Source: a virus
Taxonomy: Duplodnaviria > Caudoviricetes
Length of the DNA stretch: 24,819 nucleotides
IMG/VR virus record: IMGVR_UViG_3300032272_000070
Location: 1-24,819 of that record
Strand: one strand, 5' to 3'
The notes under the pieces are model-generated. The model was not told where the DNA came from and made no database searches. It saw only the letters and a program-made list of their open reading frames with translations. Below are positions 13,855-20,442 of this stretch, one piece after another. The translations under genes and the position numbers were made by a program. How positions within the stretch are numbered: position 1 is the stretch's first letter; the number at the start of each line of letters is the position of its first letter.

Positions 13855-13892
13855 GTTAAATTTAACTTTAACATACCTTCCAAAGTAGTCAA
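13855..13892 (-). promoter_or_regulatory. Promoter plus palindromic operator-like site for the exported-protein gene
   Basis: TTGACT (13887-13892), 16 nt, TAAAGT (13865-13870) with TGn extension; perfect palindrome GTTAAATTTAAC at 13855-13866. Confidence 0.55.
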
Positions 13893-15406
13893 GTTTTGAA
13901 TAACTCTTTATAATTACCAGCTCGTCCAATGCTCTTACTGTGGATAGGCTGTCTGACCTGAGCCCACGATGCTGTCTTAACAACCCGGTCAGAATCATGA
14001 GGGGAATAACACTGCTCTTCAACATCGAGGCCAATATGATCAAACAGCCGGTCAACGGTGCCAACGGTATCATTGACAATCTCTTCATACTTAACATCAA
14101 GGATCTCGATACCGATTGACTTCCAATGATCAACATAACCCTGGTATGCTTTCATCTTGGCTTTAATGTCTTTCAGGTTATAAGCGTAAGGGTGTGGGCT
14201 GGCAAAGTCTGTAGTCCATATACCAACGGCCAGATCATCCTCATCACGCTGCACATTGATAAACTTAGCGCCAGGAAACATAAGGGCTAGAGAGCCAACC
14301 ATTGCAAAGTTGGCTGGCATCTTGTCAGTGAAATAACCGTCCTTAACCCCAGCACAGTCGAGATACCCAAGAGAACAGTCGGTAAGAATGTTACTATTCA
14401 GCTCCGTAAGGCTGTCACAAATAAAGGTATTCTTACCGGCACACTCAAGCTCTCCCTTCCCTTCTATCTTGGAATGGCTGGAAAGTATCTGCTCGGTCAA
14501 GCTCGTCCCTGACCGTGGCATCCCAATAATAAATATGGGAGTAGTCTCTTTTATTGCAACAGACTTATCAAGGGCTTTACTGAAGTCTTCTTTGTTAAAG
14601 ATCTCCTTCATTCCGGCCAGTGTCTTTATTTCCCGATCACTATTGTATGTGTTCTTGTAAAGCTTATTTCCACCCTCAAACACCTTGTAAGCCTCTTCAT
14701 ACCGCTTAGATTCGTCAAGAATAGCCCCAAGCGAGAACAGAATAGTCTTTCTCAGGTTGTCGCTCATCTTAGACTTAAGGGCAATCCTCATCTTCTTTAT
14801 AGCCTCATTATGTCGCCCCGCCATCTTCATAATGGTGCCCCACTGGTGGGTAGATGAAAGCGGCGGAGTATTTACATTTGAGATTAGATCCATTGCCAGG
14901 TCTTTATTCCCCTGCCTTATTTCAATGAAGGCCAGATCACAAAAGGCCTTGTCACTCATCTCTTCGTCATCGAGAAGATCATAATAGATCATCCTCGCAC
15001 CCCTGATATTGCCGAGGTTTGCCAGTGCCCCCGCCTTTACTGCTCTCACGTTTGAGTTGTCTTGGTTAAACAGGTAAGCATTACAGGCGTTGACTGCCTT
15101 TGCCATTTGGCCCATGTCGGCATAGACATTAGCCAGTTCCTTGTTGAGTTTCCAGCATCCGGCCACACTAATACAGAATACCAAGGCGCTTTCCATCGAG
15201 TCCCAGTCCTTCATCATCACAAGGTCTTCAAGTATCTCTCGCTCGGTCATAAGTCCATCATGTAGGGCCTGTGATAGAATCCTGGCACCTAACCTGAATC
15301 GGTTATCCTTCGATACCATCTTTGCCAGGCGGCGCACATCTCGCTTGGTTGGGTTCTTCTGTATCTTCTTGACCAGTTTTAGCTCAGCTTTCTTTACGCT
15401 ATTCAT
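13889..15406 (-). CDS. TPR-repeat sulfotransferase family protein, 505 aa
   Basis: 5'-PSB loop PIFIIGMPRSGTSLTEQILSSH, FTDKMPANF, YEEIV, VKTASWAQVRQPIHSKSIGR; helical TPR-like N-terminal half. Confidence 0.9.
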   Translation of the reverse strand: MNSVKKAELKLVKKIQKNPTKRDVRRLAKMVSKDNRFRLGARILSQALHDGLMTEREILEDLVMMKDWDSMESALVFCISVAGCWKLNKELANVYADMGQMAKAVNACNAYLFNQDNSNVRAVKAGALANLGNIRGARMIYYDLLDDEEMSDKAFCDLAFIEIRQGNKDLAMDLISNVNTPPLSSTHQWGTIMKMAGRHNEAIKKMRIALKSKMSDNLRKTILFSLGAILDESKRYEEAYKVFEGGNKLYKNTYNSDREIKTLAGMKEIFNKEDFSKALDKSVAIKETTPIFIIGMPRSGTSLTEQILSSHSKIEGKGELECAGKNTFICDSLTELNSNILTDCSLGYLDCAGVKDGYFTDKMPANFAMVGSLALMFPGAKFINVQRDEDDLAVGIWTTDFASPHPYAYNLKDIKAKMKAYQGYVDHWKSIGIEILDVKYEEIVNDTVGTVDRLFDHIGLDVEEQCYSPHDSDRVVKTASWAQVRQPIHSKSIGRAGNYKELFKT

Positions 15407-15418
15407 TGTTGATCTCCT

Positions 15419-17173
15419 TTACAAATATTCCTCTCCATCATCTTCCCAGTCTTCTGAGTCTTCATTGCTGTACTTCTCCCTGACCATATCAAGGTGCCTG
15501 GCCGCTGATTCATCAACACCACCGCCGAGCTTCTTTATCTCTTCCTCTCGCAGTTTCCTGATATGCTCCTTAACCTTAGTCTGTTTGGCCGAGCCCTGGA
15601 ACATTAAACAGGCCTGAAGGGCAAGACCGGCACCAATAACATGATCGTCTTTCTTCCCTTCTTCGTGGCCGAGCTTGCCGTTTTCGTGCTTGATATAGGT
15701 TGAACACTCATCAATCAAGGTAGCGCACCTCACAACTCCCTCAGTATTCTTCAGGTAAGTCTTCAAATCACCTGACAGTTCAGCCTTAGAGTTGTTGGTT
15801 TCGTTCCAGCCATAAGACTTGGTTGCCTTGTTGGTGGTTGAGTCGGCCTTGATCACAACATACTGGCGCTGCCTGTCGATCTTCAGTTTCTTAACAGTTG
15901 TCTGCCCGGCCCCGGTCTTCTCAGCACATATAACAGCATTTTGACCGGCGTTATTATAATAGTTTGCAATCGCCTTGAGGACTACAGCCCATTCGTAAGC
16001 GTCTACCCTGTTGGATGAAACCTTAGCAACAAACTCATCTGTGAGCCTATCGAACACATAACCGGTTGAATAGGTGGCACCAAGCCCTTCAGATACATCA
16101 GAGCCAATGGCATAGCGTTCTTTCCACTGAATACCGTCCCAGTCTTCATGATCCTGGTAAGGTTTAACCCAGATCTCTACAATTCCACGTTCATCTTCTT
16201 CAAAGTAATACTTGTCGGTATCTTCATCCTTGAGGACAAACCCTTTGAGCCCGTCTTCTGTCTGGTCGTGACGGACAAGGCTCTTGCCAAAATAGCTACC
16301 CAACATGGCGCTGATTGCTTCGGCTTCGGTTGTTGGGTACATGAGGCTGATATCATCTTCATCCATACCCTCAAGCTTTTTCCTTTCGATAAATGTCCGT
16401 CCCTCGCTGTCAACCTCACGGCCTGGTACACATTCCCAGTTAAGAAATAGCCGTGCAAACTTATTAAGTCCTTTCATCGAGTCGGTGTATATCTTTCTCA
16501 CCCAAGCCCACCCTGGTTTATCTTTGTTTGGATTGCTGATAACGATTAACTGACCAGCTGCATGTTCAAGTGTTGGCTTCGATGCAGCATAGATTGATTT
16601 ACAGTAACGGTTTAAGGCCGCTTCATCCAACACCAACAAGGAAACTGTCTTTGATTGACCAGCTGAAGAGGTCGGCGCTAATCCCTTGATCGTGGAGTTG
16701 AGCCCCTTTATCTTAACCTCGCCTGTCTTGGGGTCGGTGGCTTCTTCACCAAAGCAAAGGTTCAATTCATTCCGCTTATAGACTTTCGGCTTCATCCAGA
16801 TAGGAAGGTTATCAAAAACAAACTTGACCCTCTCAACAAACTCCTTGGAGAAATCCTCGTTATCGCCGGAGATGATCAGGATCAACTCATTAAAGCTGAA
16901 CATTGCTTTCCATAACACATAGCAGACAACCAGCCATGTAATGCCAAGCTGCCGGGCCTTAAGACATATCAGTAACTTATGGATTAGCAGAAGAGGAAGA
17001 ACCTCACGCTGGCTCTCCCAGAGCTTGAATGGTATCGGCTCTTCGCTCTTCCGGTCCTGGATCGTGCAGAAGTTATCAACGAAATACTCAAAGCTGTTCG
17101 CGCACTTCTCGTATTCGTCTGCGTTCCGCTGGTGTTCTGCCTTCTGTTCTTCGGTGTAGGATGGGCTAGTCAT
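15419..17173 (-). CDS. terL: Terminase large subunit, 584 aa
   Basis: Walker A LKARQLGIT, Walker B LLVLDEAA, motif III ISNP, RNase H-like nuclease IGSDVSEG...DDHVIG. Confidence 0.95.
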   Translation of the reverse strand: MTSPSYTEEQKAEHQRNADEYEKCANSFEYFVDNFCTIQDRKSEEPIPFKLWESQREVLPLLLIHKLLICLKARQLGITWLVVCYVLWKAMFSFNELILIISGDNEDFSKEFVERVKFVFDNLPIWMKPKVYKRNELNLCFGEEATDPKTGEVKIKGLNSTIKGLAPTSSAGQSKTVSLLVLDEAALNRYCKSIYAASKPTLEHAAGQLIVISNPNKDKPGWAWVRKIYTDSMKGLNKFARLFLNWECVPGREVDSEGRTFIERKKLEGMDEDDISLMYPTTEAEAISAMLGSYFGKSLVRHDQTEDGLKGFVLKDEDTDKYYFEEDERGIVEIWVKPYQDHEDWDGIQWKERYAIGSDVSEGLGATYSTGYVFDRLTDEFVAKVSSNRVDAYEWAVVLKAIANYYNNAGQNAVICAEKTGAGQTTVKKLKIDRQRQYVVIKADSTTNKATKSYGWNETNNSKAELSGDLKTYLKNTEGVVRCATLIDECSTYIKHENGKLGHEEGKKDDHVIGAGLALQACLMFQGSAKQTKVKEHIRKLREEEIKKLGGGVDESAARHLDMVREKYSNEDSEDWEDDGEEYL

Positions 17174-17698: not shown

Positions 17699-18013
17699 TC
17701 AACTCCCATTAAGATACGGATCTAAAGATATCGGTTTCTTGTTGTTCCGGTAATCGGTGCAGTGATGGCTCCCTTTCGTTTTATTGTGGTGCTGGCAAAG
17801 GGTCTGAAGGTTCCCTATTGAATCCTTCCCGCCTAATGATCGCGGAATAATGTGGTCAACGGTAAGGTTCTGCTTGGTATGACACATTAAACACTTGTAT
17901 CCGTCACGATGGATAACAGCCTGTTTAGTTCTGACTGTGATTCTTAGCGGCTCAACGCTTGGCATCTCGGCCAGGAGCCTTGATTGTTTCGGTCTTCGGT
18001 GTTTATTGCTCAT
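17699..18013 (-). CDS. HNH endonuclease, 104 aa
   Basis: RDGYKCLMC...LTVDHIIPRSLGGKD...NLQTLC..HN..KG. Confidence 0.92.
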   Translation of the reverse strand: MSNKHRRPKQSRLLAEMPSVEPLRITVRTKQAVIHRDGYKCLMCHTKQNLTVDHIIPRSLGGKDSIGNLQTLCQHHNKTKGSHHCTDYRNNKKPISLDPYLNGS

Positions 18014-18066
18014 CTTTATCTATGTCGCCATAATATAAAATATTATTGGAGTGGCTAAAGTCTTTG

Positions 18067-18732
18067 TTATATAGCAATGCTGTCCGATACTTCGTTGCCA
18101 TAAACCGCCCACCCTTCATCCGCCTCCCTGCAAAACATTTCCAGCCTGTTAGCGCCCGGGAACCAGTCTTTAATTAAGTTTCGTATTTCGTCAGGCTTCT
18201 TGCTGTGTTTACCTCTGGTGTAGTTGTAAACGCTGGCGGTTCTTTTGCCCTGTTCTGGTGGGCTTACTTTGCCACGCACACCCACAAGTAATATCTCATG
18301 CTGCCCACGGAACCAATACCCCATTCCTATCTTGCCCTTATCCCATACGGCTTGTGTTTTATAGGTAAATCCCCAAGCCTTCATTACCGCTAGTGCCTCC
18401 AGCAATTTCGGAGCCGTTGCCCACAGGTATAAAACACAATCCTTTGCGGCAGGTATCTCCATTGCACATATTTCGGCGCATGTCATTGTGGGGTACTGGT
18501 TTTCAATTTTGCGACTATTGCTCTTGCTAAAAGAGTATTTCCAAGGTGGGTCTGCATATATCACGTTATAAGGCATCGAGACAGCAGCTATATAACCAGT
18601 AAATTCATTTGAAACCAAGGGGCGGCGTTCGGTGGCTTCAGTTCTACATCTACCGCACCGTGTTTCTTCATCCGCTTCAGTGGTCATAAAAACAATTTGG
18701 CACTTTGAACAAATTCTGCTTACATCTTTCAC
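18067..18732 (-). CDS. MT-A70-family N6-adenine methyltransferase with N-terminal CxxC-CxxC extension
   Basis: VIYADPPW, YPTM, LYLWAT, HSKKP, LEMFCRE..GW..YGNE; GTG start with GGAGGG RBS. Confidence 0.9.
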   Translation of the reverse strand: MKDVSRICSKCQIVFMTTEADEETRCGRCRTEATERRPLVSNEFTGYIAAVSMPYNVIYADPPWKYSFSKSNSRKIENQYPTMTCAEICAMEIPAAKDCVLYLWATAPKLLEALAVMKAWGFTYKTQAVWDKGKIGMGYWFRGQHEILLVGVRGKVSPPEQGKRTASVYNYTRGKHSKKPDEIRNLIKDWFPGANRLEMFCREADEGWAVYGNEVSDSIAI

Positions 18733-18779
18733 GTTATTCCCTCCTGTTCCCTTGGTTCAACTGATTAAGGGCGTTATAA
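18590..18779 (+). repeat. attC site A (190 bp, 127-nt loop)
   Basis: R'' ATATAAC (18590-96), 5 nt, AAT[T]CAtTTG[A]AACCAAGGG (18602-21) ... CCCTTGGTTCAAcTGATT (18749-66), 6 nt, R' GTTATAA (18773-79); two extrahelical bases, one mismatch. Confidence 0.82.
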
Positions 18780-19397
18780 ACCCGTAAGGCTAGGTTGGGT
18801 TTTGTTCGCAGTAAATGCGTGTTCAAAGATATGCTTTCCAAGGTTGCTATCCACACAGTTCCGCAATACTTGCCGTTTATTCTTTATCTTGCTATTGGCT
18901 ACAACTTCATACCCGTCAAAATCGCTTATTTTGTTCTTGCTCCGTATTTCTGCTTTGGCAAAGGTGCGCTGCGGGGCTGTAAAGTTGGCCCAAAAGAAAT
19001 GCCGATGAAGTTCAAAGGCAGGCTTAACCAGTGGCTCGTAATATGGTTTCACGTTTTCAACTACCCATTTCCCTTTAAAATAAGTTTGGAGAAAAACTAT
19101 TTCGCCATAAAGTTTCATGTCCGGCATTATTGGAGAAAACCCTTTTCCAATCACACCCACGTTGTGCCGGTATTGTCCGTGGCTAGGGCATGGCGGCGAA
19201 CTCCATATAAAATCAAATTCTGCAAAGTGTTCCGCAAGGTATTTGTGGGCATCACCAGCCACTACTTTGTCGCCAGGGTAAATGCTCTGGTAAACTCCCG
19301 CAATAGCTTCGTCCATTTCTACGGCGGTAACTTCGTGGTTTTCACCCCACAGCTTCCTATTGCCGCCAATTCCTGCGTACAAATTAAGTATTTTCAT
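18774..19397 (-). CDS. Short C5-cytosine DNA methyltransferase, 207 aa
   Basis: Motif I LNLYAGIGG, motif IV SPPC, motif VI VENV, RH.FW.NF, C-terminal LRNCV; AAGGAG RBS. Confidence 0.9.
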   Translation of the reverse strand: MKILNLYAGIGGNRKLWGENHEVTAVEMDEAIAGVYQSIYPGDKVVAGDAHKYLAEHFAEFDFIWSSPPCPSHGQYRHNVGVIGKGFSPIMPDMKLYGEIVFLQTYFKGKWVVENVKPYYEPLVKPAFELHRHFFWANFTAPQRTFAKAEIRSKNKISDFDGYEVVANSKIKNKRQVLRNCVDSNLGKHIFEHAFTANKTQPSLTGL

Positions 19398-19416: not shown

Positions 19417-19474
19417 TTATAACAAAAAATTCAAGCGGACGTAAAGGCACGCCGCTTAATATCGGTCGTTATGT
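19417..19474 (+). repeat. attC site B (58 bp, classic '59-base element' size)
   Basis: TTATAAC-AAAAA-ATT[C]AAGCGG[A]CGT-AAAGGC-ACGCCGCTTAAT-ATCGGTC-GTTATGT; extrahelical C and A (G and T on the bottom strand) as in canonical attC; right spacer 7 nt rather than 6. Confidence 0.9.
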
Positions 19475-19693
19475 GCATAGCCTTTTAATAATTAATTGCC
19501 ATGCGGTTTTAATCTCAGTTTTTACATCGTCATCAATCATATCCCATTCGTGGCTCAACCCTCTCCGGTCACTTAAATCATTTATTATTTCTTCTACGGC
19601 TTGCACATAACCCGGCACTGCACCGGAATTTGCCTCGCTTGCGGCTTTTCGCAGTCCGTCCCAAAACCCACCTTCTGTGCATGTCTTTCCCAT
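19469..19693 (-). CDS. Small hypothetical phage protein, 74 aa (cassette 3 cargo)
   Basis: AGGAGG RBS at 19699-19704; helical core DLSDRRGL..EWD.ID.D...EI...W..II. Confidence 0.75.
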   Translation of the reverse strand: MGKTCTEGGFWDGLRKAASEANSGAVPGYVQAVEEIINDLSDRRGLSHEWDMIDDDVKTEIKTAWQLIIKRLCT

Positions 19694-19737
19694 TACTTCC
19701 TCCTACACGGCAAATCCCGTGAGTTAATTCGTTAATT
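19605..19737 (+). repeat. attC site C (133 bp, 74-nt loop)
   Basis: R'' ACATAAC (19605-11), 5 nt, ACT[G]CACcGGA[A]TTTGCC (19617-34) ... GGCAAATCCcGTGAGT (19709-24), 6 nt, R' GTTAATT (19731-37). Confidence 0.88.
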
Positions 19738-19768
19738 GTCCTGCTTGGCCAGATACTTTTTCCAACAT
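19724..19768 (-). other. 14-codon ORF (MLEKVSGQAGQLTN) crossing the last crossover point
   Basis: AAGGAG RBS at 19777-19782; stop lies within attC C. Confidence 0.45.
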
Positions 19769-19854: not shown

Positions 19855-20442
19855 TTACTCTATCTCCTTCCTATTCTTGATGACAGCACTCAACAGCTCT
19901 TCAGCCGTGGTATCTCCAAGTCCTAAGTCTGTCTTCTGTAGGTTATCAATAGCATACATGCCAAGCTGCTTCGACAACTGGTCAAGGATTGGCCCCTTCT
20001 TGGCGCTCTTTATCTTGGCTACCAGTGTGACGATATCCTTGTCCCCTGGTTTACCTTTCTTAATATCAACCTCAAATCCCTCAATCGCAGCCGCCGTATC
20101 ATCGTCAAGCTCATGGATCTTCTTTAGTTCTCCGGTAGGATGATACAGCTTCCGCACATCGAAGAACGCCAGCCTTGCCTTTTCTTGCGTTATCCTTTCT
20201 CTCGTAACATCAAAGGTTTGGTAAGCTTTTGTGTCAAATTGTTGCAAAATTGTTGCAATATTAACATTCCGCAACAATCTAGCCGCAGCAGACAGGGCAG
20301 CTTTATCGCTCTTACACTTAGGATATGCGCCCTTATAGGCTTTCCAAGCAATCCGGTCTGGGTCAGCTGTCAACAAACTGATGAAACGCTGGTGTTCAGG
20401 CTTGAGTTGTTCTATCTGTTTCATTACATCTGGGTCAGTCAT
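19855..20442 (-). CDS. terS: Terminase small subunit, 195 aa
   Basis: HTH-like QRFI...AYK.AY...AAARLLRNVNI, then ARLAFFDVRKLY...LK.IHELDDDTAAAI.G.EV. Confidence 0.9.
   Translation of the reverse strand: MTDPDVMKQIEQLKPEHQRFISLLTADPDRIAWKAYKGAYPKCKSDKAALSAAARLLRNVNIATILQQFDTKAYQTFDVTRERITQEKARLAFFDVRKLYHPTGELKKIHELDDDTAAAIEGFEVDIKKGKPGDKDIVTLVAKIKSAKKGPILDQLSKQLGMYAIDNLQKTDLGLGDTTAEELLSAVIKNRKEIE

Follow-up and report, generated by a model that had tools for sequence, protein, structure and literature searches.

Introduction

In the standing view, an integron cassette consists of a gene first and its attC recombination site after it, and the attC is regarded as non-coding and able to hinder translation. 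Phage CALINs with several attC sites, small genes, DNA methyltransferase cargo and no integrase nearby were described in 2023, and IntI1 recombined five of the six phage attC sites tested (PMC9892861). We analysed a 24,819-nt stretch of viral DNA, hereafter the window, which resembles these CALINs in having several attC sites, methyltransferase cargo and no nearby integrase. It differs in that its genes are inverted relative to their own attC sites, in its putative translation starts inside attC loops and in the exchange of leaders; the part of the 2023 study on which we draw notes only divergent attC sites, in phage P12002L (PMC9892861).

The longest site, attC1, shares with the canonical attC aadA7 (PMC5027507) the R''-L''-loop-L'-R' order, extrahelical bases on its top-strand R'' arm, a purine-rich bottom strand and R'' and R' boxes that are complementary across the cassette. 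Unlike in a canonical cassette, the window gene lies on the bottom strand with its attC 5' of it, and the bottom strand is the mRNA strand. Its loop of 127 nt compares with 3-100 nt for class 1 sites (Nivina 2020, PMC7439510). Synthetic attC sites that serve as protein linkers are likewise recombination hairpins that are also coding, but there the whole site and its crossover lie within the frame, which permits domain shuffling, whereas in the window the frame starts in the loop and the R' crossover is upstream (PMC7439510).

Two other systems are related. SALINs and attG insertion (Loot et al., bioRxiv 10.1101/2022.09.11.507474) also involve cassettes away from an integrase gene, resident promoters and an array ending in a bare GTT core; they concern bacterial chromosomes and canonical cassettes, whereas the end site of the window recurs in another contig and is probably more attI-type. 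Class 1 fused cassettes (PMC8876359) similarly show N-terminal additions and translation effects at cassette junctions, but they arise by loss of the attC, whereas in the window an intact attC is read through. The cargo itself is a typical MT-A70 methylase (PF05063, phrog_359) with a DPPW motif and a complete domain, and varied N-terminal extensions are common among phage members of this family. Unlike in other MT-A70 proteins, the leader of the window protein is supplied by a recombination site, and near-identical alleles have different ones.

We propose, with a probability of about 0.6, that attC1 is the 5' hairpin of an inverted cassette in an integrase-less array of three cassettes, that its loop likely provides the start of the methylase, and that the leader encoded there is likely a replaceable by-product. 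The anatomy and polarity of the site, the in-frame Shine-Dalgarno (SD) sequence and start codon, and the unrelated leaders on near-identical methylases are observed directly.

The attC array and its setting

The virus record (24.8 kb, 43% complete) carries genes for the small and large terminase subunits, a P22-like portal, YopX and HNH proteins, all on the − strand. A 74-aa ORF, a C5 cytosine methyltransferase gene and an MT-A70 gene lie between terS and the HNH, DUF5662 and terL genes. With three attC-type sites within 1.2 kb, the locus falls under the CALIN definition of at least two sites within a few kb. Its features are as follows.

17699-18013, − strand: HNH endonuclease, downstream flank, followed by DUF5662 and the terminase large subunit (15419-17173)
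18018-18075, + strand: array end site, GTT core at 18066-18072 without partner arm; putatively attI- or attG-like
18067-18576, − strand: MT-A70 adenine methyltransferase body, 169 aa, DPPW motif, own Met without SD (Pfam PF05063, E 7.8e-23)
18577-18732, − strand: 52-codon leader from GTG 18732, 37 codons in the loop (CxxC-x14-CxxC), the remainder through the L''/R'' arm and a spacer
18590-18779, top strand +: attC1, 190 nt (arm-pairing scan and arm profile)
18590-18596, ~18602-18609, ~18760-18766 and 18773-18779, top strand +: boxes R'', L'', L' and R' of attC1
18610-18621 with 18749-18759: inner stem of attC1
18622-18748, − strand: variable terminal loop of attC1, 127 nt, 63% purine on the coding (bottom) strand
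18739-18744, − strand: Shine-Dalgarno sequence GGAGGG inside the attC1 loop (anti-SD duplex −10.8 kcal/mol)
18773/18774: predicted crossover of attC1, between G and TT
18774-19397, − strand: C5 cytosine methyltransferase cassette; stop codon inside R' of attC1, SD and ATG after attC0
19417-19474, + strand: attC0, 58 nt, textbook short attC (covariance model)
19469-19693, − strand: 74-aa ORF, function unassigned; AGGAGG and ATG start within the attC-1 loop, reading through the L''/R'' arm (anti-SD duplex −10.2 kcal/mol)
19605-19737, + strand: attC-1, 133 nt, the other long site, likewise with a start in its loop (scanner score 13, 14/15 pairs)
19855-20442, − strand: terminase small subunit (terS), upstream flank

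A custom arm-pairing scanner paired 14 of 15 arm positions of attC1, giving a score of 14, the best in the window, whereas six codon-shuffled copies of the window never scored above 9. On the strength of its arms, attC1 is beyond chance. Its R''/R' boxes read ATATAAC/GTTATAA; the AAC/GTT is conserved and the outer letters deviate from the strict consensus RYYYAAC/GTTRRRY. The L''/L' boxes are paired past unpaired central spacers of 5 and 6 nt. Two extrahelical bases are present on the right arm of attC1, where the bottom strand reads A first (usually G) and T second; those of attC0 are G and T.

In each of the three sites the extrahelical bases lie on the + strand arm carrying AAC, and since such an arm is assigned to the top strand (Nivina 2016, PMC5027507), + is the top strand. 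The sequence-only reading had labelled this arm of attC1 L''/R'', correctly, as both extrahelical bases are on the + arm with AAC at 18594-18596. All three sites also score higher in the arm profile with + as the top strand, and a covariance model built from 22 short non-window sites in other viral contigs gives attC0 47 bits on + and 8.1 bits on −.

A perfect 10-nt R''/R' complement bounds each of the three window genes. The same signal is modest across 38 neighbouring pairs of our wider site sample, with a mean of 5.0 of 7 letters complementary across a gene compared with 4.3 within a site. The window genes are on the bottom strand with the attC 5' of the gene, and the canonical layout of a top-strand gene with a 3' attC is absent. 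The tally of three sites and three genes plus a single bare core assigns every attC to the gene starting there; since the genes are inverted, this places the attC 5' of its gene. The R' crossover coincides with the stop codon of the preceding gene. A candidate fourth attC at 18066 was rejected, as it has no partner arm.

It is extremely unlikely, in our view, that the inverted repeat is not an attC but a chance or decayed terminator-like stem, with the ORF an ordinary fused phage gene. The folding energy of the whole site is not significant (z −1.05 for the top-strand DNA, +0.69 for the mRNA), which would suit such a stem, although an unremarkable value is expected because two thirds of the site is loop. 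The likeness of attC1 to short sites is modest, its arms coming no higher than 16th and 7th of 213 in the profile of short sites, and the covariance model of 22 short sites reports neither attC1 nor attC-1. The contig also lacks an integrase: there is no match to the tyrosine recombinase family PF00589 in its 24.8 kb, although the phage may have a recombinase of its own, the contig being 43% complete. Against a spurious stem stand the 14 of 15 pairs with R and L box spacing, two further sites within 1 kb, one of them a textbook attC, and the 10-nt terminal complements on all three genes. In addition, a relative breaks off at a predicted crossover: by our reading of the alignment table, two short contigs of run X2 match the methylase end and part from the window at 18066.

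A blastn search of 50,697 phage records returned no match covering the attC1 site, and the exact 20-nt arm is absent from the viral contigs. The long loop may make attC1 a poor substrate, since recombination from double-stranded DNA is lower with long loops (PMC5027507).

Several observations concern the surroundings of the array. Another contig of run X1 has the 58-nt end site (18018-18075) with three differences, and a third has a looser version of it. Phages may use the site as a dedicated place of insertion; its spacing ahead of GTT resembles that of an attI L box. All eight viral matches to the end-site motif, including one inside a gene (L157), look like chance and were rejected. Near-identical copies of attC0 occur in other run X1 contigs, one of which has a pair separated by 1.7 kb; the summed depth there is about 45 versus 9.6. 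Run X1 is a possible source of the window and thus not independent of it. An ORF of 14 codons (19726-19768, − strand) begins with a strong SD (−9.3 kcal/mol) and ATG 19768 and extends into R' of attC-1. Joined to each other, the two flanks of the array would give a 27-codon frame, so that a small gene may have been the target of its insertion. A gene for a 505-aa TPR-sulfotransferase (13889-15406, − strand) lies between the terL and portal genes. Predicted promoters and terminators showed no excess (3 vs 3.6 and 1 vs 2.8, respectively), and no Rfam family was matched.

Start and frame of the methylase

It had been claimed from the letters alone that an SD, a GTG start and a cysteine-rich peptide lie within the 127-nt loop, that their frame continues through the L''/R'' arm into the MT-A70 domain, and that the domain has its own Met without a clear SD. 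Coordinates and frame were borne out. GGAGGG (18744-18739) precedes GTG 18732 on the − strand at a spacing of 6 nt, and no stop interrupts the frame before TAA 18067, giving 221 aa. The internal Met at 18576 is residue 53; its anti-SD duplex is +1.3 kcal/mol compared with −10.8 at the GTG. These energies were calculated with a 9-nt motif that we took as the anti-SD. The match to PF05063 (81.7 bits, cut-off 23.9) runs from residue 55 and PDB matches begin at residue 54, so that the whole MT-A70 domain follows the internal Met. In 20,000 dinucleotide shuffles of the loop, GGAGG with a start and an open frame arose 140 times (0.7%), and a weaker 4-nt SD with an open frame 2,215 times (11%). The strength of the SD suggests that translation of the methylase likely begins in the attC1 loop.

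Among the 120 methylase homologues listed, of 2,572 matches, 85 have at most 13 residues ahead of the catalytic motif and hence no long leader; a leader followed by an internal Met is seen in 10, and in 25 the N-terminus is longer and lacks such a Met. The internal Met is conserved, and most of the listed homologues are called from it.

These proteins bear on an alternative that we consider unlikely, in which Met 18576 is the main start and the loop ORF is an in-frame relic of a small gene or only delivers ribosomes. The closest homologues conserve the Met, and among the top 20, 15 (P0004-P0014 and P0017-P0020) are called from it; the catalytic domain is complete after it, and weak-SD open frames arise in 11% of shuffled loops. 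However, there is no SD at 18576, the strong in-frame SD at optimal spacing is rare in shuffles, and the loop-start design recurs at attC-1 and elsewhere. Moreover, the 25 listed homologues with a longer N-terminus have no Met just ahead of the domain, and some of them have arm-like ends.

A further suggestion, that the mRNA hairpin formed by the attC1 arms controls translation of the methylase, found no support, and we regard such control as very unlikely. The arms are predicted to pair in the mRNA (mean unpaired 0.09 and 0.20) and the SD begins 5 nt inside the stem. Yet the RNA folds no better than shuffles, and the SD and GTG are only about half paired (mean unpaired 0.45 for the SD). Transcription reaches the right arm 110 nt beyond the start, and since this arm is part of the reading frame, ribosomes would open the stem.

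The leader peptide

Cysteines 8, 11, 26 and 29 of the 221-aa protein form CxxC-x14-CxxC, that is, two CxxC knuckles, a pattern found in none of the 20,000 dinucleotide shuffles of the loop. The proposed Zn-ribbon holds at the level of the two knuckles, but no described family supports it: every Pfam match of the leader fell below the curated cut-off (best E 0.002), with no zinc-ribbon family passing, so that the label stands for the motif only. The best PHROG match had an E of 0.021, and the best Atlas value was 0.81. The Atlas neighbours, hypothetical proteins of 49-55 aa at 0.79-0.81, scored too low to count.

Homologues of the leader were absent among proteins of 94-2000 aa, a search of little weight in which none of four candidates was scored. 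Two genome matches were rejected as chance, out of frame or unrelated, and apparent N-terminal matches (L019, L024, L043, L063 and others) proved to be long unrelated extensions. A CxxC upstream at L089 is the end of the upstream gene and not a loop. In these protein and genome searches the loop peptide was not seen on other cargo either.

Leader turnover on near-identical methylases

The window leader is common to none of the 120 listed homologues; the other copies are an identical protein and a shorter call of the same protein. The three closest methylase bodies, P0002, P0001 and P0003, are 98.2%, 95.8% and 85.0% identical, with leaders of 54, 40 and 38 residues, respectively. The P0003 leader has its own CxxC-x5-CxxC and the P0002 leader has four Cys, whereas that of P0001 has none. 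Arm-like peptide ends suggest that the leaders of P0001-P0003 lie in attC loops.

The window and P0001 leaders align better than shuffles (0/300 shuffles), which we attribute to their shared arm-proximal end, and their junction is at Gly-Tyr, which spells R'' in the window. The remaining leader pairs do not exceed shuffles, except for P0015/P0016 and a borderline case with P0003 (p ~0.04). A run X2 contig is 95% identical to the window over 18095-18585 and then continues with ~650 unlike letters, as read from the alignment table. It leaves the window at 18585, where the P0002 protein also diverges, and the two may be one allele. In a more distant relative (L001, 73% identical), a short inverted attC is followed by its own SD and ATG.

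Leaders turn over fast on this methylase. Near-identical methylases with different leaders imply that the leader is likely a replaceable expression part and not a conserved new domain. The Cys content (CxxC..CxxC in two of the four long leaders, four Cys in a third) nevertheless exceeds what a by-product predicts, and three Cys-rich leaders out of four would leave room for selection on a metal-binding leader. Separately, two loci (L003 and L004) have tandem inverted cassettes with two different MT-A70 genes in one array.

In-loop starts at other attC sites

From pattern scans of viral contigs, together with the homologue loci, we collected 71 distinct sites. With the three window sites added, and five doubtful sites and six at locus edges removed, 63 sites were scored; many of the 28 matches from one pattern scan had no partner arm, and these were left out. 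The sample is biased to one attC family, and several sites per contig make it non-independent.

Under a strict SD rule, the best start lay in the loop at 1 of 21 sites of up to 70 nt, 3 of 34 sites of 71-110 nt and 4 of the 8 that exceed 110 nt. Seven of these eight have at least one start in the loop whose frame stays open through the arm, or five of six without the two from the window. An SD-led ORF is found on the bottom strand in 52 of the 63 scored sites, only the bottom strand being counted. Within the window, attC-1 (133 nt) has AGGAGG and ATG 19693 reading through the arm, whereas attC0 (58 nt) is followed by an ordinary SD and ATG after the site. The view that an attC doubles as likely coding sequence and translation start is upheld; the second long window site and sites of other phages have the same build. 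The other in-loop leaders listed in the sample are short and none has a CxxC pair. Among five candidates in the fetched loci, there was no other acceptable site of at least 140 nt.

Other arrangements were encountered in the same contigs. At L119 (reverse, 1816-2792), the first 11 and last 13 letters of a two-ORF cassette are nearly the same as those of the window C5-methylase cassette while the cargo is different, which suggests the reuse of cassette ends with new cargo. Half-sites in which an L''/R'' arm without a partner lies ahead of a gene occur at L120 (1440-1524), L089 (2440-2500) and L112 (2440-2500), and the arm at L120 is read through from an upstream ATG. These half-sites are possibly decayed (domesticated) cassettes. 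At L089 (3075-3134), a C5-methylase homologue has half an inverted arm upstream and an attC in canonical orientation downstream. Long inverted arrays with 5-12 scored sites within 5 kb are present in four viral contigs (L175, L203, L168 and L167), some with near-identical repeated attC sites.

Discussion

In the reading that we prefer, an integron integrase acting in trans, probably of host origin, would cut at R', and leader, attC and methylase would travel as one unit, the inverted genes being read off the phage operon transcript. The loop probably derives from the 5' part of a small, cysteine-rich phage gene that was captured, and its retention may be due to the strong SD that it provides for a body without one. 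Now and then the cassette would be re-housed behind a different attC body, and its leader would change. Candidate routes for this are rare top-strand recombination at R'', recombination near the arm and fresh cassette formation. Since attC1 is in the same cassette as the methylase, the ordinary bottom-strand crossover at R' cannot make the fusion. Top-strand recombination at R'' would fit the P0001 junction and not the P0002/X2 junction at 18585.

The sequence-only reading had gone further and proposed that the site contributes an N-terminal domain and is a route to new fusions. Of this, the exchange of leaders on the methylase stands (P0002, P0001 and P0003), while the leader is not conserved and the ordinary crossover makes no fusion. 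In its strongest form, which we consider quite unlikely, the loop would be a selected zinc-binding N-terminal domain, and the integrase would exchange attC bodies at R'', amounting to natural domain shuffling. The absence of CxxC..CxxC from all loop shuffles, the unrelated leaders with this motif in the window and in P0003 and the four Cys in P0002 are in line with it, as is the window/P0001 junction at the Gly-Tyr that spells R''. Top-strand recombination exists (PMC5027507), and a synthetic attC works as a protein linker (PMC7439510). However, top-strand events are 1,000-10,000 times rarer (PMC5027507), and the P0002/X2 junction is off the R'' crossover. P0001, 96% identical, has a leader without Cys, and 85 of the 120 listed homologues have no long leader. 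The window leader itself has no homologue found and was not seen on other cargo, and the other in-loop leaders of the sample are short and lack the motif.

A wider version, in which the long loops of mirror-image phage cassettes would be exchangeable N-terminal modules by way of occasional cuts at R'', with zinc-binding leaders selected for targeting or stability, is similarly doubtful. If true, such a mirror-image module system would do in nature what attC domain shuffling does by design. A domain-fusion claim would thus matter more, but the evidence favours a tolerated, replaceable leader.

Full-text literature, which leaves most subscription papers outside its coverage, yielded no natural inverted cassette that starts inside an attC loop, and the inverted, loop-start design is probably unpublished. 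What the window locus adds is the swap of leaders on a near-identical enzyme. Leaders that differ between methylases up to 98% identical make it testable how a gene gets and changes its attC. For annotators they are a warning that translated attC arms may make up the N-termini of many phage accessory proteins. With the polarity reversed, and with a recombination site that carries the likely start signals and first codons, a cassette of this kind would bring its own translation start into the phage operon.
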